The translations under genes were made by a program, and so were the position numbers. Positions 846 through 62,335 of a DNA stretch of 64,000 nt are shown here, piece after piece; the stretch's first letter is position 1, and every line of letters begins with the position of its first letter. Location of the stretch: assembly GCF_056712565.1 (NCBI RefSeq), contig NZ_CM160072.1, one strand, 5' to 3'. A model generated the notes under the pieces. That model did not search any database and had not been told where the DNA came from. It saw only the letters and a list, made by a program, of their open reading frames with translations.

Positions 846-3104
846 TTACTCTTCGCTATCACCGCTGCTGGCACGGCGAGGAGAGTCGATCTCAACACGA
901 TCGATACGCTGCAAACCGCGCATCAACGTACCGCGGCGTCCACGTTCGCCAGCGACTTTCTGTAGCTCTTCCGGACGCAGTTTAATTTTGCGTTTCCCAA
1001 CATGAATGGTCAGCGTGCTTTGCGGCGGCAGAACGTACAGTTGCGCCAGGCCATCCTCGCCACGCGCGGCTTCTGCCGATGGAATGTTGATAATCTTGTT
1101 GCCTTTGCCCTTCGACAGCTGCGGCAGATCGCTTACCGGGAACATCAACATACGGCCTGCCTGAGTGATTGCCAGCAGCATATCGGAAGCATCTTCAATC
1201 ACCACCGGCGGCATAACATGGGCATTTTCCGGTAAGGTGATCAAAGCCTTACCTGCACGGTTACGCGCCACCAGATCGTTAAAGGTGCAGACGAAACCGT
1301 AACCCGCATCGGAAGCCATCAGCAGTTTCTGATCGTCGCTTTCCATCAGCATATGGTCAACGGTCGCTCCAGGCGGCAACGTTAATTTGCCGGTGAGCGG
1401 CTCGCCCTGACCACGCGCCGACGGCAGCGTAATCGGGTCGATGGCATAGCTACGACCGGTGGAATCAACAAACACTACCGGTTGGTTGCTCTTACCTTTC
1501 ACCGCCGCTTTGAAGCTATCGCCCGCTTTATAATTCAGGCCCGGCGCGTCGATATCATGGCCTTTAGCGCTGCGTACCCAGCCCATCTGCGACAGCACAA
1601 TGGTGACAGGTTCAGACGGCAGCATGTCGTGCTCGCTCATCGCTTTCGCTTCTTCGCGTTCCTGCAACGGCGAACGACGTTCGTCACCGTAGGCTTGCGC
1701 GTCTGCCTGCAGTTCTTTCTTCAGCAGGTTATTCATTTTACGCTCGGAAGCCAAAATGCCCTGCAACTGGTCGCGCTCTTTTTCCAGCTCACTCTGCTCA
1801 CCGCGAATCTTCATCTCTTCCAGTTTGGCAAGATGACGCAGTTTCAGTTCGAGGATCGCTTCCGCCTGGGTTTCCGTAAGGCCAAACCGCGACATCAGCG
1901 CCGGTTTCGGTTCATCTTCATTACGAATGATCTCAATCACTTCGTCGATATTGAGAAACGCCACCAGCAAACCTTCGAGGATATGCAGGCGCTTGAGGAC
2001 TTTCTCCAGACGATAGTTCAGTCGGCGGCGCACGGTATCGCGGCGGAACACCAGCCATTCGGAGAGGATTTCCAGCAGGTTTTTCACCGCCGGACGACCA
2101 TCCAGACCGATCATATTGAGGTTAATGCGATAGCTCTTTTCCAGATCGGTGGTAGCGAAGAGGTGGTTCATCACCTGATCCATATCCACGCGGTTGGAGC
2201 GCGGCACAATCACCAGACGGGTCGGGTTCTCGTGGTCAGATTCATCGCGCAGATCGTCAACCATCGGCAGCTTTTTGTTGCGCATTTGCGCAGCAATTTG
2301 CTCCAGTACGCGCGCACCTGAAACCTGATGCGGCAATGCGCTGATAACCACCGCGCCATCTTCTTTCTTCCAAACCGCGCGCATACGCACTGAACCACGT
2401 CCGTTCTCGTAGATTTTACGAATCTCGGCGCGCGAAGTGATAATTTCCGCTTCAGTCGGATAATCCGGCCCCTGCACGATATCCAGCAGCTGATCGAGCG
2501 TGGTTTTCGGCTGGTCGATTAATGCGATTGCCGCCTGAGCCACTTCACGCAGGTTATGCGGTGGAATATCGGTCGCCATGCCGACGGCAATACCGGTGGT
2601 GCCGTTAAGCAAAATGTTTGGCAGACGGGCAGGTAGCATTTTCGGCTCCTGCAAAGTGCCGTCGAAGTTTGGCACCCAGTCAGCCGTCCCCTGCCCCAGC
2701 TCGCTCAATAGCAGCTCGGAATATTTCGACAACCGGGATTCGGTGTAACGCATTGCCGCGAACGATTTCGGATCGTCCGGCGCCCCCCAGTTCCCCTGAC
2801 CATCAACCAGCGGATAACGGTAAGAGAACGGCTGCGCCATCAGGACCATCGCTTCATAACAGGCACTATCGCCGTGCGGATGGTATTTACCCAGTACGTC
2901 ACCGACGGTACGGGCCGATTTTTTAAATTTGGCGCTGGCATTCAGGCCCAGTTCAGACATCGCATACACAATGCGCCGCTGAACGGGTTTCAGACCATCA
3001 CCAATAAACGGCAACGCACGGTCCATGATCACGTACATGGAGTAGTTTAAGTAGGCGTTTTCCGTAAATTCATGTAGCGCAAGGCGCTCTGCCATATCGC
3101 TCAT
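846..3104 (-). CDS. parC: DNA topoisomerase IV subunit A
   Basis: 752-aa ORF beginning [32 protein letters not shown]..., recognised ParC. Confidence 0.95.
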
Positions 3105-26657: not shown

Positions 26658-28454
26658 ATGTTTGATAAATATAGAAAAACACTCGTAGCCGGAACTGTGG
26701 CGATAACCCTGGGTTTGTCAGCATCGGGGGTGATGGCTGCGGGTTTTAAACCAGCGCCACCTGCCGGGCAACTGGGTGCGGTCATTGTCGATCCCTACGG
26801 CAATGCACCACTGACCGCTTTGGTTGACTTAGATAGCCATGTTATTTCTGACGTCAAAGTTACCGTCCATGGGAAGGGCGAAAAAGGCGTAGAAATCAGC
26901 TATCCCGTGGGTCAGGAATCACTAAAAACTTACGATGGTGTACCGATTTTTGGTCTTTATCAGAAATTTGCTAACAAAGTGACCGTTGAGTGGAAAGAAA
27001 ACGGCAAGGTCATGAAAGATGATTATGTGGTGCACACTTCGGCCATCGTCAATAATTACATGGATAACCGCTCTATCTCCGATTTACAACAGACCAAAGT
27101 TATTAAAGTCGCACCGGGTTTTGAAGATCGCCTCTATCTGGTTAATACCCACACCTTTACCGCCCAAGGTTCCGATCTCCACTGGCATGGTGAGAAAGAT
27201 AAAAATGCCGGTATCCTTGATGCGGGTCCGGCAACCGGCGCACTCCCTTTTGATATCGCGCCCTTTACTTTCATCGTCGATACCGAAGGTGAATACCGCT
27301 GGTGGCTGGATCAAGACACTTTCTACGATGGTCGTGACCGCGATATCAACAAGCGTGGTTATCTGATGGGTATCCGCGAAACGCCACGCGGCACCTTTAC
27401 CGCTGTACAAGGTCAGCACTGGTACGAGTTCGACATGATGGGGCAGGTGCTCGAAGATCACAAACTACCGCGCGGATTTGCTGACGCCACTCATGAGTCC
27501 ATTGAGACGCCAAATGGCACGGTACTGTTGCGCGTAGGTAAGAGTAACTATCGTCGCGATGACGGCGTACACGTCACCACCATTCGTGACCATATCCTCG
27601 AAGTCGATAAATCTGGTCGCGTTGTCGATGTATGGGATCTGACCAAGATCCTCGATCCGAAACGCGATGCACTGCTCGGCGCGCTGGATGCAGGTGCAGT
27701 TTGCGTTAACGTTGACCTTGCCCATGCAGGACAACAGGCAAAACTGGAACCAGATACACCGTTCGGCGACGCGCTGGGTGTAGGGCCAGGCCGCAACTGG
27801 GCGCACGTGAACTCTATCGCCTATGACGCAAAAGATGACTCTATCATCCTCTCCTCTCGCCACCAGGGTGTTGTGAAGATTGGTCGTGATAAGCAAGTGA
27901 AATGGATCCTTGCGCCCTCTAAAGGTTGGGAAAAACCGCTGGCCAGCAAGCTGCTGAAACCGGTTGATGCTAACGGTAAGCCAATTACCTGTAACGAAAA
28001 TGGCCTGTGCGAAAACTCAGACTTCGACTTTACCTACACCCAGCATACCGCCTGGATTTCCAGCAAAGGAACGCTCACCATTTTTGATAATGGCGATGGG
28101 CGTCATCTGGAACAACCTGCCTTACCAACCATGAAATACTCTCGCTTTGTGGAATATAAGATTGATGAGAAGAAAGGCACCGTTCAGCAAGTGTGGGAAT
28201 ACGGTAAAGAACGTGGCTACGATTTCTATAGCCCGATTACCTCCATCATTGAATATCAAGCCGACCGTAACACCATGTTTGGCTTCGGTGGTTCTATTCA
28301 TTTGTTCGATGTCGGGCAGCCAACCGTCGGTAAGTTGAACGAAATCGATTACAAAACCAAAGAAGTGAAAGTGGAAATCGACGTGCTGTCAGATAAACCC
28401 AATCAGACTCACTACCGTGCGCTGTTAGTCCGTCCACAACAGATGTTCAAATAA
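26658..28454 (+). CDS. assT: periplasmic arylsulfate sulfotransferase
   Basis: 598-aa ORF with signal peptide; followed by dsbL and dsbI as in uropathogenic E. coli. Confidence 0.88.
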   Translation: MFDKYRKTLVAGTVAITLGLSASGVMAAGFKPAPPAGQLGAVIVDPYGNAPLTALVDLDSHVISDVKVTVHGKGEKGVEISYPVGQESLKTYDGVPIFGLYQKFANKVTVEWKENGKVMKDDYVVHTSAIVNNYMDNRSISDLQQTKVIKVAPGFEDRLYLVNTHTFTAQGSDLHWHGEKDKNAGILDAGPATGALPFDIAPFTFIVDTEGEYRWWLDQDTFYDGRDRDINKRGYLMGIRETPRGTFTAVQGQHWYEFDMMGQVLEDHKLPRGFADATHESIETPNGTVLLRVGKSNYRRDDGVHVTTIRDHILEVDKSGRVVDVWDLTKILDPKRDALLGALDAGAVCVNVDLAHAGQQAKLEPDTPFGDALGVGPGRNWAHVNSIAYDAKDDSIILSSRHQGVVKIGRDKQVKWILAPSKGWEKPLASKLLKPVDANGKPITCNENGLCENSDFDFTYTQHTAWISSKGTLTIFDNGDGRHLEQPALPTMKYSRFVEYKIDEKKGTVQQVWEYGKERGYDFYSPITSIIEYQADRNTMFGFGGSIHLFDVGQPTVGKLNEIDYKTKEVKVEIDVLSDKPNQTHYRALLVRPQQMFK

Positions 28455-28471
28455 TTAAGAAGGGAATAAAA

Positions 28472-29140
28472 ATGTCGAAATTAGGGATCTCATCACTATT
28501 TAAAACCATACTGCTTACCGCAGCTCTGGCGGTTTCATTTACCGCTTCTGCATTTACCGAAGGCACGGATTACATGGTTCTGGAAAAACCAATTCCGAAT
28601 GCCGACAAAACGCTGATTAAGGTATTTAGCTACGCCTGCCCGTTCTGTTACAAGTACGACAAAGCGGTTACCGGTCCGGTATCGGAAAAAGTGAAAGATA
28701 TCGTTGCTTTCACGCCATTCCATCTGGAAACAAAAGGTGAATACGGCAAACAAGCAAGCGAAGTCTTTGCGGTCTTGATCAATAAAGATAAAGCAGCAGG
28801 CATTTCCTTATTTGATGCTAACTCTCAGTTTAAGAAAGCCAAGTTTGCCTACTACGCGGCTTATCACGACAAAAAAGAACGCTGGTCTGACGGTAAAGAT
28901 CCGGCTGCTTTTATCAAAACCGGTCTGGATGCCGCAGGTATGAGTCAGGCGGATTTTGAAGCGGCACTGAAAGAACCAGCGGTTCAAGAAACACTGAAAA
29001 AATGGAAAGCCTCTTATGATGTCGCCAAAATCCAGGGAGTTCCAGCCTATGTCGTTAATGGTAAGTACTTGATCTACACCAAGAGCATCAAATCCATCGA
29101 CGCGATGGCAGACCTTATCCGTGAGTTAGCAAGCAAATAA
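28472..29140 (+). CDS. dsbL: periplasmic thiol:disulfide oxidoreductase DsbL (DsbA paralogue)
   Basis: 222-aa ORF with signal peptide and CPFC active-site motif. Confidence 0.88.
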
Positions 29141-29154
29141 CAGGGAAACAGGCT

Positions 29155-29826
29155 ATGGGTATTAAGGGAATGTGGAAAGATCTTCGCACATCACCAGTTG
29201 ACACACTGGTCAGATGGCAGGAGCAACGCTTGTTGTGGTTGTTAATGGCCGTTGCGATGGGCGCGTTAATTATCCTGGCGCACTCTTTCTTCCAGATCTA
29301 TCTCTACATGGCACCCTGTGAGCAATGTGTATACATTCGCTACGCCATGTTTGTGATGGTTATTGGAGGATTGGTTGCAGCGATCAACCCAAAGAACATC
29401 ATCCTAAAGCTAATTGGCTGCGTGATGGCATTTTACGGCAGCATTTTGGGACTGAAGTTTTCGCTCAAACTGAACGATATCCACCATGCAGTACATAATC
29501 CGGATCCCGATTCACTGTTTGGCGTACAGGGTTGCTCTACCGATCCCACTTTTCCCTTTAACCTGCCGCTGGCACAGTGGGCACCAAATTGGTTCAAGCC
29601 TACCGGGGATTGTGGCTATGACGCACCAATCGTTCCTGATGGCGTCACACTGAGCAGCACGCAACAGTGGTTTGTGGAAATGTATCAGCAATCTGAAGGC
29701 TGGTATCTGCTACCACCATGGCATTTTATGAATATGGCTCAGGCTTGTATGCTGGCTTTTGGTATGTGTCTGGTGCTGCTGGTCATTATGAGTGGCGCAT
29801 GGGCGCTTAAAATCATCAGAGGCTAA
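29155..29826 (+). CDS. dsbI: membrane disulfide oxidoreductase DsbI (DsbB paralogue)
   Basis: 223-aa membrane ORF with CEQC motif. Confidence 0.88.
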
Positions 29827-31823: not shown

Positions 31824-32378
31824 AATTTAACATTACTAAACATTTAGCGTTAAAATTTCACATATCCATCGTTGAATACATTCATATACTCGCATAATTC
31901 TGGATCAAGTATATGATTTCGATCATAGTAAGTGTTGTATTATATACCATATCTGGTCAAAAAAAGAACAACCAAGGCTATTAATATATATTATCCCCCG
32001 ATAAAACATTACTAATTAATAATAAAACTTAATAAGCATCGCTAGATATATATTATATCTTCACGATTATTAAGCCCCTACTCGTTATAATAAGTATACA
32101 CTCCCCCCTTTACAACATTAGGCGTAAACCTTTGTCAACAAACGGTTGTTTTTTCGCCGCAATTCATACAAAAAAATTATCACAAATAACGATAAACAAC
32201 AAACATCTAGATATATACACCTCAATATATAACGGGGAATTATATTTTAAGTTTTACTTAATCAGCATTTAATATAAATAACGAGTCAAATTATCTCAGG
32301 TTATGGTAATGTCCATAGCTGAATTAATATTAAATTCAAACCTGTATTTTCCTCATCCATTTATAAAGGATTATAGTC

Positions 32379-32942
32379 ATGTTAAAAAAAACATTGTTAT
32401 CTATGTTCGCAACCGCATTGTTATCAGGCGTTGCTTTTAACGCTCTTGCTGACGATGCTAATCAGGGTTCAGGTAAAATTACTTTTAAAGGTGAAGTTAT
32501 CGATGCACCTTGTTCTATTGCTCCTGGTGATGAAGATCAGACAATAAACCTCGGTGAAGTTGCTGATACCGTATTAAAAAGCGGTCAGAAATCACTGCCT
32601 GTAGATGTCACCATTCATTTGCAGGATTGTATTTTATCTGACGGCACTAACACTGTTGATAAAGTCAAAATCACCTTTAGTTCTGCCAGTGTTGACGCTA
32701 CCGACTCCAACCTGCTTAAAAACACTCTGGAAGGTAACATCGGCGGCGCAACTGATGTAGGCGTACGTCTGGTGAAATCAGACAACACCAACGTGACTCT
32801 TGGCACTCCAATCACTATCAACTTCCCGACGACTAACTCTTACCAGGAGTTGAACTTTAAAGCCCGTATGGAGTCTCTGGGACGCACCGCGACCCCGGGT
32901 AACGTGCAGGCACAGGCTAATTACGTACTCGACTACAAGTAA
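32379..32942 (+). CDS. fimbrial major subunit (chaperone-usher pilin)
   Basis: 187-aa ORF with signal peptide, pilin Cys pair and C-terminal beta-strand (…ANYVLDYK). Confidence 0.85.
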   Translation: MLKKTLLSMFATALLSGVAFNALADDANQGSGKITFKGEVIDAPCSIAPGDEDQTINLGEVADTVLKSGQKSLPVDVTIHLQDCILSDGTNTVDKVKITFSSASVDATDSNLLKNTLEGNIGGATDVGVRLVKSDNTNVTLGTPITINFPTTNSYQELNFKARMESLGRTATPGNVQAQANYVLDYK

Positions 32943-33028
32943 TCGGTAGTCAATACCTACACAACGCCAGGCGGTAAAGCCGATGAAATTTCATCGGCAA
33001 CTTTGGGCCTTTTTAGAAATGGATTTTT

Positions 33029-35551
33029 ATGAACAATAAAAACACGTTTTCCCGGGATAAGTTATCCCATGCAATTAAAAATGCCCTGTCTGGCGTTGTG
33101 TGTTCCCTACTCTTCGTTTTGCCAGTCCACGCCGTAGAATTCAACGTCGATATGATTGACGCAGAAGACCGTGAGAATATCGACATCTCTCGTTTTGAGA
33201 AAAAAGGCTATATCCCCCCTGGTAGATACCTCGTTCGTGTGCAAATAAATAAAAATATGTTGCCACAAACGTTAATACTGGAATGGGTAAAAGCCGATAA
33301 TGAAAGTGGTTCGTTACTCTGCTTAACCAAAGAAAATTTGACTAATTTCGGTCTTAATACGGAATTTATTGAATCATTGCAAAACATAGCTGGCAGCGAA
33401 TGTCTCGATTTAAGCCAACGTCAGGAGTTAACGACACGACTTGATAAAGCTACGATGATATTATCGCTAAGTGTTCCCCAGGCATGGTTAAAATACCAGG
33501 CAACAAACTGGACGCCACCAGAGTTTTGGGATACCGGTATCGCCGGGTTTATCCTTGATTACAACGTGTACGCCAGCCAGTATGCCCCACATCACGGAGA
33601 CAGCACCCAAAACGTCAGCTCCTATGGTACGTTAGGCTTTAACCTCGGCGCATGGCGCTTACGTAGCGATTACCAATATAATCAGAATTTTGCTGATGGA
33701 CGCTCGGTAAACCGCGACAGCGAATTTGCGCGAACTTATCTGTTTCGCCCTATCCCCTCCTGGTCGTCAAAATTCACTATGGGCCAGTACGACCTGAGCT
33801 CCAATCTTTACGATACCTTCCACTTTACTGGCGCATCGCTGGAAAGTGATGAAAGCATGCTGCCGCCAGATTTACAGGGTTATGCGCCACAAATTACCGG
33901 CATCGCGCAGACCAACGCGAAAGTAACTGTGGCACAAAATGGTCGTGTACTTTATCAAACCACTGTCGCGCCAGGCCCTTTTACTATTTCTGATTTGGGG
34001 CAATCGTTTCAGGGGCTGCTGGATGTCACAGTGGAAGAAGAAGATGGCCGCACCAGCACCTTCCAGGTTGGCTCCGCATCCATTCCCTATTTAACCCGTA
34101 AAGGGCAAGTGCGCTATAAAACGTCACTGGGAAAACCGACATCCGTCGGGCATAACGATATCAATAATCCCTTTTTCTGGACGGCGGAAGCCTCCTGGGG
34201 CTGGCTGAACAATGTGTCGTTGTATGGTGGTGGCATGTTCACCGCTGATGATTATCAGGCTATCACTACCGGTATTGGCTTTAACCTTAACCAATTCGGT
34301 TCGCTTTCTTTTGATGTCACTGGAGCAGACGCGTCTTTACAGCAACAAAATAGCGGCAATCTGCGTGGTTACAGCTATCGCTTCAACTATGCAAAGCATT
34401 TCGAATCGACAGGCAGTCAGATTACCTTCGCGGGTTATCGCTTCTCAGATAAAGATTACGTGTCGATGAGTGAGTACCTCAGCTCGCGTAATGGCGATGA
34501 GTCAATCGATAATGAAAAAGAGAGTTATGTCATTTCCTTGAACCAGTACTTTGAAACGCTGGAATTAAACTCTTATCTCAACGTTACACGCAATACTTAT
34601 TGGGACAGCGCCAGCAATACCAACTACTCCGTATCTGTAAGCAAAAACTTTGATATTGGCGATTTCAAAGGTATATCTGCATCGCTGGCAGTAAGTCGAA
34701 TCCGCTGGGATGACGACGAAGAGAATCAATATTACTTCTCTTTCTCTCTACCTTTACAACAAAACCGCAACATCTCCTACAGTATGCAGCGAACGGGAAG
34801 CAGTAATACTTCGCAGATGATTTCCTGGTACGATTCATCAGATCGCAACAATATCTGGAATATTTCAGCGTCGGCAACGGACGACAATATACGTGATGGC
34901 GAACCAACACTGCGCGGCAGCTACCAGCACTATTCGCCGTGGGGACGTCTGAACATTAATGGCAGTGTACAGCCGAATCAGTACAATTCTGTTACCGCAG
35001 GCTGGTACGGTTCACTTACCGCTACACGTCATGGTATCGCCCTTCACGATTATAGCTATGGCGATAACGCCCGCATGATGGTCGATACCGATGGCATCTC
35101 CGGCATTGAAATCAACTCTAACCGTACCGTTACCAACGGGCTGGGCATCGCCGTGATACCTTCGTTATCGAACTACACCACCTCCATGTTGCGGGTGAAC
35201 AATAACGATCTGCCAGAAGGTGTCGATGTCGAAAACTCGGTTATTCGCACCACGCTCACCCAGGGTGCCATCGGCTACGCAAAACTGAATGCCACCACCG
35301 GTTACCAAATCGTCGGCGTTATTCGTCAGGAAAATGGGCGCTTCCCTCCACTAGGTGTGAATGTCACGGATAAAGCGACAGGTAAAGATGTGGGCCTGGT
35401 CGCGGAAGACGGCTTCGTTTATCTCAGCGGTATTCAGGAAAATAGTACTCTGCATTTAACCTGGGGTGATAATACCTGTGAAGTCACGCCGCCAAACCAA
35501 AGTAACATTAGCGAAAGCGCAATAATTTTACCTTGTAAAACAGTCAAATAA
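33029..35551 (+). CDS. fimbrial outer-membrane usher
   Basis: 840-aa ORF with signal peptide, in usher position. Confidence 0.88.
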   Translation: MNNKNTFSRDKLSHAIKNALSGVVCSLLFVLPVHAVEFNVDMIDAEDRENIDISRFEKKGYIPPGRYLVRVQINKNMLPQTLILEWVKADNESGSLLCLTKENLTNFGLNTEFIESLQNIAGSECLDLSQRQELTTRLDKATMILSLSVPQAWLKYQATNWTPPEFWDTGIAGFILDYNVYASQYAPHHGDSTQNVSSYGTLGFNLGAWRLRSDYQYNQNFADGRSVNRDSEFARTYLFRPIPSWSSKFTMGQYDLSSNLYDTFHFTGASLESDESMLPPDLQGYAPQITGIAQTNAKVTVAQNGRVLYQTTVAPGPFTISDLGQSFQGLLDVTVEEEDGRTSTFQVGSASIPYLTRKGQVRYKTSLGKPTSVGHNDINNPFFWTAEASWGWLNNVSLYGGGMFTADDYQAITTGIGFNLNQFGSLSFDVTGADASLQQQNSGNLRGYSYRFNYAKHFESTGSQITFAGYRFSDKDYVSMSEYLSSRNGDESIDNEKESYVISLNQYFETLELNSYLNVTRNTYWDSASNTNYSVSVSKNFDIGDFKGISASLAVSRIRWDDDEENQYYFSFSLPLQQNRNISYSMQRTGSSNTSQMISWYDSSDRNNIWNISASATDDNIRDGEPTLRGSYQHYSPWGRLNINGSVQPNQYNSVTAGWYGSLTATRHGIALHDYSYGDNARMMVDTDGISGIEINSNRTVTNGLGIAVIPSLSNYTTSMLRVNNNDLPEGVDVENSVIRTTLTQGAIGYAKLNATTGYQIVGVIRQENGRFPPLGVNVTDKATGKDVGLVAEDGFVYLSGIQENSTLHLTWGDNTCEVTPPNQSNISESAIILPCKTVK

Positions 35552-35557
35552 TTCAGG

Positions 35558-36307
35558 ATGAATATAATGAAATCACCATTAATCACAACAGGAATGATTT
35601 GTTTACTGGGGATCTGCAACTTTGCCCAGGCGACTGTCTCTCCCGACAGAACACGCATCATTTTTAATGCTTCGAATAAAAGCGCAACGGTTCGCCTGAC
35701 CAACCAAAGTAAAATCGATCCCTATCTGGCTCAGTCGTGGATTGAAGATGCCAGCGGTAAAAAAACGCGTGATTACATCTCGACATTGCCGCCGATGGAA
35801 CGTATTGAGCCTGATGAACAGATACAAATTCGCCTGATGGCACTGGCCTCGTTAAACGACTTACCACAGGACCGAGAAACGTTGTTCTACTATAACGTGC
35901 GAGAAATTCCGCCGCGCGCCAAAGAACAGAATGTAATGCAAATCGCCATGCAAAGCCGCCTGAAGCTATTCTGGCGGCCAAAAGCGATTGAGTTAAAAGA
36001 GGGGGAGATGATTCCTCTGCAAAAAGTAACGATTACCCGCACCGCCGCCGGTCTGACCCTGAATAACCCGACGCCTTATCATATTACCGTCGGTTATATC
36101 GGCACTAATGGCAAGACACTGATGCCCGGTGCGGACAGTATTATGGTGGTACCATTTACTTCTGCAACTCAACACCTAAGCAGCCTGCCCTCTACCTTCC
36201 AGTTAGGCTTTGTGGCGGACTACGGCGGGCTGGAGATGTTTAAAGTCGAATGTAATTCCATCCAATCCCTCTGCCAAACCTCTCCTGCTAAGAAGGGGAA
36301 AATATGA
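35558..36307 (+). CDS. fimbrial periplasmic chaperone (PapD-like)
   Basis: 249-aa ORF with signal peptide; 4-bp overlap with adhesin gene. Confidence 0.85.
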   Translation: MNIMKSPLITTGMICLLGICNFAQATVSPDRTRIIFNASNKSATVRLTNQSKIDPYLAQSWIEDASGKKTRDYISTLPPMERIEPDEQIQIRLMALASLNDLPQDRETLFYYNVREIPPRAKEQNVMQIAMQSRLKLFWRPKAIELKEGEMIPLQKVTITRTAAGLTLNNPTPYHITVGYIGTNGKTLMPGADSIMVVPFTSATQHLSSLPSTFQLGFVADYGGLEMFKVECNSIQSLCQTSPAKKGKI

Positions 36308-37353
36308 TTACGCTTTTTCGTTTACTGGCGATTCTTTGCCTGTTTTTTAACGTTTCAGCTTTTGCTGTTGATTGCTATCAGGATGGGTACAGAGGAACAA
36401 CCCTCATAAATGGAGATTTACCAGCGTTCAAAATTCCAGAGAACGCGCAACCTGGGCAAAAAATTTGGGAGAGTGGAGATATTAATATCACGGTTTATTG
36501 TGACAATGCACCAGGATGGACAACAGACAATCCATCAGAAAATATCTATGCCTGGATCAAATTACCCCAAATAAATAGTGCCGACATGTTGAATAATCCA
36601 TATTTAACCTTTGGCGTGACTTATAATGGTGTAGATTATGAAGGGATAAATGAAAGAATTGATACTCATGCATGCCTGGATAAATATGAGCAATACTATA
36701 ATGGGTATTATTATGACCCTGTATGCAATGGCAGTACCCTTCAAAAAAATGTAACATTTAATGCCCATTTTCGCGTCTATGTAAAATTCAAAAGCCGCCC
36801 AGCAGGAGATCAGACGGTGAACTTTGGCATAGTCAACGTGTTACAATTCGATGGCGAAGGAGGGGCAAACATGTCCTCTAACGCGAAGAATTTACGCTAT
36901 GTGATTACGGGATTAGATAATATTTCATTCCTTGACTGTAGTGTCGACGTCCGGATTTTTCCAGAAAGCCAGATAGTTAATTTCGGGCAAATTGCTGCAA
37001 ACTCTATTGCTACTTATCGACCAAAAGCTGCATTTAGCGTATCTACTATAAAAGATGTTGCTGCCGATTGTACCGAGCAATTTGATGTTGCCACCAGCTT
37101 TTATACGACAGATACGTTACATGATGATACGCATCTGGAAATGGGTAATGGTTTGTTGATGCGTATTACTGATCAAAAAACACAAGAAGACATTAAGTTT
37201 AATCAGTACAAACGCTTCACCACATATATTCCAGGTCAGACTGGAGCGATGGTTACCCGTGATTACCAGGCTGAACTTTCACAAAAACCGGGGGAGACTC
37301 TCGTTTATGGGCCTTTCAAAAAAGATCTCATCGTAAAAATAAACTATAACTGA
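36304..37353 (+). CDS. fimbrial tip adhesin (two-domain: lectin + pilin domain)
   Basis: 349-aa ORF with signal peptide, Cys-rich N-terminal domain; last gene of operon. Confidence 0.75.
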   Translation: MITLFRLLAILCLFFNVSAFAVDCYQDGYRGTTLINGDLPAFKIPENAQPGQKIWESGDINITVYCDNAPGWTTDNPSENIYAWIKLPQINSADMLNNPYLTFGVTYNGVDYEGINERIDTHACLDKYEQYYNGYYYDPVCNGSTLQKNVTFNAHFRVYVKFKSRPAGDQTVNFGIVNVLQFDGEGGANMSSNAKNLRYVITGLDNISFLDCSVDVRIFPESQIVNFGQIAANSIATYRPKAAFSVSTIKDVAADCTEQFDVATSFYTTDTLHDDTHLEMGNGLLMRITDQKTQEDIKFNQYKRFTTYIPGQTGAMVTRDYQAELSQKPGETLVYGPFKKDLIVKINYN

Positions 37354-37406
37354 ACAGCAAAATGCCGGGAACACCCCGGCATTTTCATATTTAGTATTTC
37401 ACGTCA

Positions 37407-38060
37407 TTAGCTGGCTTTACGCTCATGTGCCTGACGGTATGCCACCAGGTCTTCAATAGTCACGAGCGCCATATTGTGTTTATTGGCAAACTCAATGCAC
37501 TCTGGTGCACGCGCCATCGTGCCATCGTCATTAGTCAGCTCACACAGCACACCAGCTGGTTTAAAGCCTGCCAGCGTCATCAGATCGATAGTCGCTTCAG
37601 TATGACCGCCACGCGTCAGTACACCACCTGCCTGCGCGCGAAGTGGGAAAACGTGGCCCGGACGATTCAGATCTGAAGGTTTTGCGCCATCGGCAATCGC
37701 TGCGCGAACGGTCGTAATACGGTCAGCGGCAGAAACACCGGTAGTCACACCTTCAGCCGCTTCAATGGTCACGGTAAAACCGGTGCCATAGGCGCTGGTG
37801 TTATTTTCTACCATCATTGGCAGATCGAGTTGTTTACGGCGATCGTCAGTAATGCACAGGCAAACAATACCACTCCCGTGGCGAATGGTCAGCGCCATCT
37901 GCTCAACGGTCATGGTTTCTGCCGGGAAGATCATATCGCCTTCGTTTTCACGGTCTTCATCATCAAGCACCATCACACCGCGTCCTTCACGCAGCGCAGC
38001 CAGTGCATTTTCAACACGTTCGAAAGGCGTACCAAAAGAGGAAAGTAGCGTCTGATTCAT
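37407..38060 (-). CDS. ribB: 3,4-dihydroxy-2-butanone 4-phosphate synthase
   Basis: 217-aa [45 protein letters not shown]..., recognised RibB. Confidence 0.95.
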
Positions 38061-38119
38061 GGTAAAAAAACCTCACTAAAATTATGGTTACCAGAATCAG
38101 GGCAGTCTTAGGAGTGGCG

Positions 38120-38315
38120 GCATATAGCCAAAATAACGTGAGCGGGTCCATGCCCGACAGAATCGTTACTCTCTCCCATCCGGACTCTAACCGTCGGCCC
38201 CGGAATTACACCGGATCTGCTGTCCTTTGAGTTCGCACCCAAAGCGCTCGCGGGCTTTCAACTGAGTTGATTTACCGCCGGTGGGGAATTTCGCCCCGCC
38301 CTGAGAATAAGCGGA
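38120..38315 (-). promoter_or_regulatory. FMN riboswitch (RFN element) in ribB 5' leader
   Basis: Minus-strand sequence contains ...GGGCGGGGCGAAATTCCCCACCGGCGGTAAA...CCGACGGTTAGAGTCCGGATGGGAGAG..., conserved FMN-aptamer blocks. Confidence 0.8.
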
Positions 38316-38433
38316 TTCACTATAACGCTAATGATTAGCGCCAGCAACGCATAGCTTCACATAATTCTGGTTTATGACTTACCCTTATCGCACTACAATG
38401 GCACTCAACACCTATCAGTACAGGGAAACTACA

Positions 38434-38733
38434 ATGATTGACCCGAAAAAAATTGAGCAAATCGCTCGCCAGGTTCACGAATCAATGCCTAAAGGAATCA
38501 GGGAGTTCGGGGAAGATGTGGAGAAAAAAATCCGCCAAACCCTACAAGCGCAGCTGACGCGTCTCGATCTGGTAAGCCGCGAAGAATTCGACGTTCAGAC
38601 GCAAGTCCTGTTACGGACTCGTGAAAAACTGGCGTTACTGGAGCAGCGCATCAGCGAACTGGAAGCGCGCAATAATCCGATAGCAGAACTTCAATCTCCT
38701 CCGGCTATCCCGCCAGTTGATAAAGCAGAATAA
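38434..38733 (+). CDS. ubiK: ubiquinone biosynthesis accessory factor UbiK (YqiC)
   Basis: ORF 38374-38733; start placed at [13 protein letters not shown]... preceded by agggaaa RBS. Confidence 0.8.
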
Positions 38734-38767
38734 AGCACCACAAAAACGGGCCAGACGGCCCGTAATA

Positions 38768-41749: not shown

Positions 41750-41895
41750 GGGAAAGCCCCTCCCGAGGAAGGGGCCTTATAGAAGGAAAGGGTTATGATG
41801 AAGTTCGTCATCATACTGGTTGTGTTGTTACTGTTAAGTTTCCCGACTTACTAACAACTCATCAGAGGGGGGAGAAATCCTCCCTTACCCTTGTT
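41750..41895 (-). ncRNA. sib: Sib antitoxin sRNA antisense to ibs (approximate ends)
   Basis: Minus strand opposite ibs begins near ...aagggtaagggaggatttctcccccctctgat..., a Sib-like 5' block; boundaries not determined. Confidence 0.5.
41795..41854 (+). CDS. ibs: Ibs-family type I toxin (19-aa hydrophobic peptide)
   Basis: atgatgaagttcgtcatcatactggttgtgttgttactgttaagtttcccgacttactaa encodes MMKFVIILVVLLLLSFPTY; yqiK-hldE intergenic, the remembered sibD/sibE locus. Confidence 0.7.
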   Translation: MMKFVIILVVLLLLSFPTY

Positions 41896-41973
41896 CCTTT
41901 ACTTTAGGTTGAAAAAACAACAGCGTCAATAGATCTGCCTGCTACGAAGCGAGATCTGTGAACCGCTTTCCAG

Positions 41974-49797: not shown

Positions 49798-49955
49798 GCC
49801 GGATGCGACGTAAGCGTCTTATCCGGCTACATGTCAACGACAGTTGTAGGCCTGATAAGACGCGCGAGCGTCGCATCAGGCGTTGATTGCCGGATGCGGC
49901 GTGAACGCCTTATCCGGCCTACGCAATCTGATAAGACGCGTCAGCATCATATCCG
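49798..49955. repeat. BIME: cluster of 3-4 REP palindromic units
   Basis: Alternating-orientation units gccggatgcgacgtaagcgtcttatccggc / gcctgataagacgcgcgagcgtcgcatcaggc / gccggatgcggcgtgaacgccttatccggcc. Confidence 0.85.
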
Positions 49956-62259: not shown

Positions 62260-62335
62260 GGCCCCTTAGCTCAGTGGTTAGAGCAGGCGACTCATAATCG
62301 CTTGGTCGCTGGTTCAAGTCCAGCAGGGGCCACCA
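62260..62335 (+). tRNA. ileX: tRNA-Ile (anticodon CAU, lysidine-type minor isoleucine tRNA)
   Basis: 76-nt ggccccttagctcagtggttagagcaggcgactcataatcgcttggtcgctggttcaagtccagcaggggccacca with encoded CCA; upstream ttgcga-17bp-tataat promoter. Confidence 0.9.

Follow-up and report, generated by a model that had tools for sequence, protein, structure and literature searches.

The FMN riboswitch of the ribB leader in an Escherichia coli genome: identity with the K-12 element and organization of the expression platform

The ribB gene, which specifies the 217-residue enzyme 3,4-dihydroxy-2-butanone-4-phosphate synthase, is located at positions 37407..38060 on the minus strand of the window, i.e., the entire 64-kb stretch of DNA that was analysed. 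The open reading frame list, PGAP and the K-12 annotation agree on this placement. The divergent ubiK gene starts at position 38434 in both PGAP and the K-12 annotation, and the two coding regions are separated by 373 bp (38061-38433). The gap was reported as 313 bp in the preliminary description of the locus, a value that derives from use of an in-frame upstream ATG at 38374, which gives the longest open reading frame, as the ubiK start. The accompanying proposal that a riboswitch accounts for this long gap holds in substance, although not with that number: ribB is the regulated gene and its leader is 252 nt in length, thereby filling 252 of the 373 bp, and it carries on the same strand an FMN aptamer that ends 103 nt before the ribB AUG. 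The other 121 bp of the gap accommodate the promoter of ribB and presumably that of the divergent ubiK gene.

The whole window was scanned with Rfam 15 at gathering thresholds, which produced four matches, one of them to the FMN riboswitch family RF00050. The match extends from 38312 to 38164 on the minus strand with a score of 120.9 bits, compared to a gathering score of 66.2 (E = 1.1e-27), and takes in model positions 1-138 of 138 without truncation. A scan with this family had been named in the preliminary description as the means to verify the riboswitch, and the outcome is a full-length match at nearly twice the gathering score. The aptamer comprises helices P1-P6 and corresponds to leader positions 1-149 (38164..38312, minus strand). 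In addition to RF00050, this assignment is based on covariation in 113 aptamers that is described below and on a riboswitch feature assigned by PGAP: the "FMN riboswitch" annotated in the type-strain genome ATCC 11775, which is 100% identical, converts exactly to window positions 38164-38312. The structure line of the Rfam alignment places the 5′ strand of P1, UUAUUCUC, at leader positions 3-10 (38303..38310, minus strand), and the same alignment locates the 3′ strand, GAGAGUAA, at positions 140-147 (38166..38173, minus strand). The consensus structure includes 28 pairs, all of which form in the window sequence save one flagged position in P4.

Two conserved aptamer blocks that had been quoted for the ribB leader are exact. 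The block GGGGCGAAATTCCCCACCGGCGGTAAA is at 38271-38297 and the block CCGACGGTTAGAGTCCGGATGGGAGAG at 38171-38197, both on the minus strand, and each occurs once in the 64-kb window; no match to either block was found in 100 dinucleotide-preserving shuffles. The assignment of an FMN riboswitch to the ribB leader on the minus strand is therefore borne out by RF00050, by the PGAP feature and by identity with K-12. The span of 38120-38315 that was originally proposed for the element encloses the whole aptamer plus 44 nt past it, but leaves out 38061-38119, the remainder of the expression platform, where the switching segment and the ribosome-binding site are found.

The transcription start (+1) of the published ribB riboswitch numbering corresponds to the G at position 38312 on the minus strand, where the Rfam match also begins. 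With +1 set at 38312, all of the numbered landmarks in the published study sit on the correct base: C175, G176 and U181, the probe targets 137-146 and 218-227, and the 282-nt transcript that consists of the leader and 10 codons (PMC11571811). Inspection by eye revealed a candidate −10 hexamer, TATAGT, at −12 to −7 (38319..38324, minus strand), which fits a start at 38312, and a candidate −35 hexamer, TTGCTG (38342..38347, minus strand), that is 17 nt upstream of the −10 element and has three of six matches to TTGACA. Both putative hexamers were placed relative to the start implied by the literature. A scan with the sigma-70 consensus did not report a ribB promoter, as the weak −35 sequence with three of six matches falls below threshold, even though TATAGT makes a good −10 element.

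When 410 nt of the minus strand (38031-38440) were compared with the K-12 MG1655 sequence, a single difference emerged, which is at position 38341, the first base of the promoter spacer: G in the window and C in K-12. The leader from +1 to +282 is base-for-base identical to that of MG1655, and therefore published experiments with K-12 apply directly to the transcribed leader examined here. The K-12 element, also termed the RFN element, shares this leader, the same ribB gene, the divergent ubiK gene and membership of RF00050, and is distinguished from the present locus by the one promoter-spacer base and by a different wider neighborhood. Thus, the element is the K-12 ribB riboswitch itself in another strain; it has been annotated and studied experimentally before, and nothing about it is new. 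The leader RNA also has been listed in the K-12 annotation as the small RNA SroG.

The element is almost universal within the species. A 701-bp query around it was matched at ≥95% identity in 5425 of 5426 complete E. coli genomes, several at 100%, and the matches listed for this query all are annotated as riboswitch, ribB and ubiK. In three of the more divergent E. coli alleles, changes within the leader are confined to positions 49, 50 and 74 and to the length of a U-tract. Positions 49 and 50 are in the apical loop of P3 and position 74 is in distal P4, which leaves the conserved core untouched, and the variable U-run separates the Shine-Dalgarno sequence from the AUG. The same three alleles possess the K-12 base at 38341.

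Gene order in the window is unlike that of K-12 at 31928-37408 and at 38665-38738. One breakpoint is directly after the ribB stop codon and the other is within the 3′ end of ubiK, with the result that UbiK has 99 residues here compared to 96 in K-12. A yqi-like fimbrial operon that encodes a fimbrial-like protein, usher, chaperone and pilus protein is present at 32379-37353 (plus strand), between yqiD and the ribB stop, whereas the homologous operon of K-12 is between ubiK and glgS. The operon displays 65-75% nucleotide identity to ygiL-yqiGHI of K-12, compared to 95-98% for the flanks. It is convergent with ribB and terminates 53 bp downstream of that gene. A perfect 11-bp hairpin, AAAATGCCGGG-AACAC-CCCGGCATTTT, with A and T runs on its flanks is located at 37359-37385, between the convergent pilus gene (end at 37353) and ribB (end at 37407). 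The hairpin looks like a bidirectional intrinsic terminator and the segment is without counterpart downstream of ribB in K-12.

Other features of the window also were noted. Three plus-strand open reading frames of 598, 222 and 223 residues at 26658-29826 adjoin ygiD and match the aryl-sulfate sulfotransferase, DsbA/DsbL-like and DsbI genes of ATCC 11775 by length, order and position alone. The three genes are between ygiC and ygiD in ATCC 11775, whereas ygiD directly follows ygiC in K-12. A single Sib antitoxin RNA (RF00113, 142.2 bits) is at 41780-41929 on the minus strand; the corresponding position in the type-strain record NZ_CP033092.2 bears the ibsE toxin gene (682127-682186), and K-12 has tandem sibD/ibsD and sibE/ibsE copies, both of which align to the one copy in the window. 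The two further Rfam matches are to naRNA4 (RF02564, 83.1 bits), a REP/BIME-type repeat at 49849-49919 (minus strand), and to a tRNA gene (RF00005, 73.1 bits) at 62260-62332 (plus strand).

The structure and distribution of the aptamer were assessed with relatives retrieved from a species-level genome collection. A degenerate pattern that describes P6 and J6/1 yielded 120 loci that span Proteobacteria, Firmicutes, Actinobacteria, Chloroflexi, Bacteroidota and other phyla. In 45 of the 119 usable loci, the same strand encodes a RibB homologue no more than 1.2 kb downstream. With the window sequence as guide, the Rfam consensus structure was projected onto 113 aptamers aligned by MAFFT. Standard pairs are formed in 92.7% of cells, a value that drops to 36-56% if the 3′ partners are shifted by 1-3 columns, and both sides have changed in 19 of the 28 pairs; the retrieval pattern had itself fixed P6 and two P1 pairs, and P4 is poorly aligned by MAFFT. 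None of 500 column shuffles of this alignment reached the observed values by any measure.

Conservation extends into the region between the aptamer and ribB. Comparison of the ribB leaders of Escherichia albertii, Citrobacter, Enterobacter, Acerihabitans, Providencia, Photorhabdus, Aeromonas, Enterovibrio, Vibrio and Shewanella showed that neither the length nor the sequence of the linker behind the aptamer is preserved, and that the motifs CCCUGAUUCUGG and ACCAUGAAUCAG are kept. Unlike the rest of the leader, the switching segment and its ACCAUGAAUCAG partner are conserved from Escherichia to Vibrio and Shewanella. This conservation includes synonymous positions of ribB codons 2-3. When the window's own aptamer was added to the 120 retrieved loci, the heptamer GCCCUGA was found ≤320 nt downstream in 46 of the 121 aptamers, compared to about two to three expected by chance. 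Among these same 121 FMN-riboswitch loci, CCCUGAUUCUGG is conserved in 22, including those of Vibrio, Shewanella and Aeromonas, and ACCAUGAAYCAR is maintained at the nucleotide level in 22. The ribB leaders of Vibrio, Shewanella, Aeromonas and other Enterobacterales share with the window the aptamer, the platform logic, CCCUGAUUCUGG, ACCAUGAAUCAG and a downstream ribB gene, but differ in the linker between aptamer and switching segment and in lineage-specific insertions in P3 and P4. The same platform motifs, preceded by an FMN riboswitch and followed by ribB, are present at 1794-1956 (minus strand) of pMJ3 of Candidatus Enterovibrio escacola, a record that is labelled as a plasmid of a symbiont.

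The expression platform downstream of the aptamer was dissected into discrete parts, all of which are on the minus strand. The 3′ strand of the anti*-P1 helix, CGUUAUUUU, was mapped to leader positions 175-183 (38130..38138), within which the pause sites at 175 and 181 are located; duplex energy was also considered in this assignment. It pairs with AGAGUAACG at positions 141-149 in a helix that has exactly two G-C pairs, as in the published structure (PMC11571811). Positions 191-220 (38093..38122) form a C-rich, G-poor stretch with 12 C compared to 5 G residues. The composition is as expected for a Rho loading region and marks the stretch as a candidate Rho-utilisation (rut) site, the putative boundaries of which were set from composition. 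The switching segment, GCCCUGAUUCUGGUAA, occupies positions 210-225 (38088..38103) and was delimited by duplex energies and conservation. A Shine-Dalgarno sequence, GUGAGG, was recognised by eye at positions 237-242 (38071..38076) and is paired in the sequestering hairpin in predicted folds. The 3′ strand of the sequestering stem, UUACC-AUG-AAUCAG, was assigned to positions 248-261 (38052..38065) by constrained folding and takes in the AUG (38058-38060), codons 2-3 and the 247-249 pause region.

The switching segment has two potential partners. In the putative anti-P1 helix, GCCCUGA (210-216) pairs with UCAGGGC (9-15), which is the end of the P1 5′ strand together with J1/2, although the exact base pairs are a prediction. 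In the sequestering stem, positions 213-225 pair with 248-261 and a small inner hairpin pairs the GAGG of the Shine-Dalgarno sequence. As positions 213-216 are needed by both, the anti-P1 and sequestering pairings are mutually exclusive. The predicted duplex energies are −8.7 kcal/mol for P1, −6.2 for anti*-P1, −15.0 for anti-P1 and −17.6 for the sequestering stem. As P1 contributes just −8.7 kcal/mol, the ligand would be required for it to compete. The platform helices are invariant, and hence their support is in the form of conservation rather than covariation.

Folding algorithms were less informative about switching. The aptamer was not recovered by unconstrained minimum free energy (MFE) folding of the leader and the energy did not differ significantly from that of shuffled sequences (z = −1.32). 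The approach was rejected as a test because the FMN aptamer relies on tertiary contacts and on its ligand. When folds were constrained to the ON and OFF states, the sequestering hairpin appeared in every predicted state. Given these two outcomes, energy minimisation alone cannot demonstrate switching, and the case for the riboswitch is built on the covariance model, covariation, conservation of the platform and the literature.

With the position and identity of the aptamer, the match to K-12, the mutually exclusive pairings and the lack of an intrinsic terminator established in the window, the following mechanism is proposed. Transcription would start at approximately 38312 on the minus strand and the first 149 nt would fold into the six-helix FMN aptamer. 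If FMN is bound while RNA polymerase is still within the leader, P1 would close by pairing of positions 3-10 with 140-147. With P1 closed, GCCCUGAUUCUGGUAA (210-225) would be free to pair with 248-261, thereby hiding the Shine-Dalgarno sequence and AUG. The leader then would be untranslated with its C-rich platform exposed, and Rho would terminate transcription inside the leader. Without FMN, CGUUAUUUU (175-183, anti*-P1) is predicted to capture the P1 3′ strand, and GCCCUGA (210-216, anti-P1) to capture UCAGGGC (9-15). The ribosome-binding site would thus be open, and ribB would be both transcribed and translated.

FMN binding, protection of P1 and of the sequestering stem, pausing and Rho dependence have been described for the identical K-12 sequence and would be expected to apply equally to the leader in the window. 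The Kswitch values for FMN on nascent K-12 ribB transcripts are 23-206 nM (PMC11571811, Eschbach et al., 2024), with a value of 176 nM for P1 and of 206 nM for the sequestering stem, as probed in its 5′ strand (PMC11571811). FMN protects the P1 3′ strand region from RNase H probe 137 and also protects positions 215-227 (PMC11571811). RNA polymerase pauses at 175/181 and at 247-249 in the ribB leader; co-transcriptional sensing of FMN is tight when polymerase is at the 175 pause (23 nM) and has nearly disappeared by the 247 pause, such that the sensing window closes near +247 (PMC11571811). The anti*-P1 stem is backed by mutants (PMC11571811). Each end of the aptamer, 5′ as well as 3′, is engaged in a helix in the ON state, and RNase H accessibility without FMN is minimal at approximately position 214 (PMC11571811), two observations that are in agreement with the anti-P1 assignment. 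In regard to Rho, the ribB leader has a Rho termination score of 3.1, and the rho R66S mutant no longer exerts this control; Rho-dependent attenuation of ribB, assessed by RNA polymerase occupancy, likewise is gone in that mutant (PMC5499598). Furthermore, ribocil-C alters Rho termination at the ribB leader in single-molecule assays with purified components (PMC10085680).

The contribution of Rho is the point at which a purely translational reading would diverge: FMN would sequester only the ribosome-binding site, and the drop in mRNA would be an indirect outcome of the action of Rho or RNases on untranslated message with no direct gating of rut. The sequestering stem does span the Shine-Dalgarno sequence, AUG and codons 2-3, and is protected by FMN (PMC11571811), the leader is devoid of an intrinsic terminator, and an indirect mechanism of exactly this kind was described for thiM by Bastet et al. 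(PMC5499598). More generally, ligand-dependent conformation likewise ties translation and/or rut exposure to Rho in the thiM and thiC TPP riboswitches of E. coli and in the mgtA leader of Salmonella (PMC5499598), although these systems employ other ligands and aptamer folds than ribB. However, whereas thiM reaches Rho indirectly via translation, control of ribB is reported as direct (PMC5499598). It is treated in the same way in the single-molecule study, and Rho termination is ligand-dependent in vitro without ribosomes (PMC10085680). The platform also has a stretch rich in C and poor in G ahead of the ribosome-binding site, which argues against the translational reading. On balance, this reading is unlikely. 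The FMN riboswitch of Bacillus subtilis ribD (ribDEAHT) offers a different comparison, in that it shares the aptamer family and ligand but controls an intrinsic terminator of the hairpin and U-tract type. The ribD and ribB switches both are kinetically driven with co-transcriptional, pause-assisted sensing (PMC11571811), and a U7 run ahead of the ribB start codon might be viewed as part of such a terminator alongside the common RF00050 aptamer. Nevertheless, a terminator scan of the minus strand at 38061-38312 identified no G+C-rich hairpin followed by a U-tract, and the U7 run is inside the hairpin that sequesters the Shine-Dalgarno sequence and AUG, where it is flanked by weak A-U and G-U pairs. 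With no intrinsic terminator between the aptamer and AUG, the element is not a switch of the Bacillus type and would act by sequestration of the Shine-Dalgarno sequence and AUG in conjunction with Rho; the scan has already refuted intrinsic termination, to which a negligible probability is attached.

A further reading places the function of the leader elsewhere, with the main product being a stable trans-acting small RNA, SroG, that corresponds approximately to the aptamer and regulates other genes, and with control of ribB as a secondary activity. An RNA of ~150 nt from the ribB leader was catalogued as SroG in small RNA screens, papers on plasmids and strain engineering still use that name, and premature termination would yield a fragment of this type. 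Yet no trans target is reported in the papers that were examined, and the same architecture recurs upstream of ribB in distant genera. As control in cis explains every conserved feature, be it the aptamer core, the switching segment or the pairing of that segment with the ribB start codon, a principal role in trans was set aside as very improbable. The element instead is, with near certainty, the FMN riboswitch of the E. coli ribB leader that functions as a cis-acting OFF switch.

The ON state of this riboswitch may hold an additional conserved helix between J6/1 and a C/U-rich element of the platform, although the proposal is speculative and probably incorrect. In the MFE fold, the anti*-P1 helix is extended by pairing of GGGAG (136-140) in J6/1, which is part of the FMN-binding core, with CUCC (199-202), a C/U-rich element ~10 nt upstream of the switching segment. 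The sites of this pairing, J6/1:CUCC(U), correspond to window positions 38173-38177 and 38110-38114 (leader positions 136-140 and 199-203). When FMN is absent, the pairing together with anti*-P1 would close a long-range helix around positions 150-198 and the start of the candidate rut region (191-220). The two variable purines in J6/1 seem to co-vary with their partners: the combination is GG-CC in Enterobacterales, AA-UU in Aeromonas and a Desulfoplanes metagenome-assembled genome (MAG), AG-CU in Enterovibrio, Shewanella and Vibrio, and GA-UC in a Desulfobacteraceae MAG. A per-locus shuffle test of the GGGAG:CUCC pairing was not significant, with p ≤ 0.05 in just two of 22 loci. The rut site is shut in a hairpin at low FMN in the published model (PMC10085680). 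If the J6/1:CUCC helix is genuine and absent from that model, it would refine the description of how rut is hidden.

Labelling of the 252-nt non-coding leader as a riboswitch keeps the gap between ribB and ubiK from being taken for a novel element or for a gene that annotation has missed. In practical terms, the ribB FMN riboswitch is of interest both as an antibacterial target, for roseoflavin and ribocil, and as a model for riboswitches that are coupled to Rho. As the sequence here is identical to that of K-12, work on the ribB riboswitch transfers unchanged to this strain.
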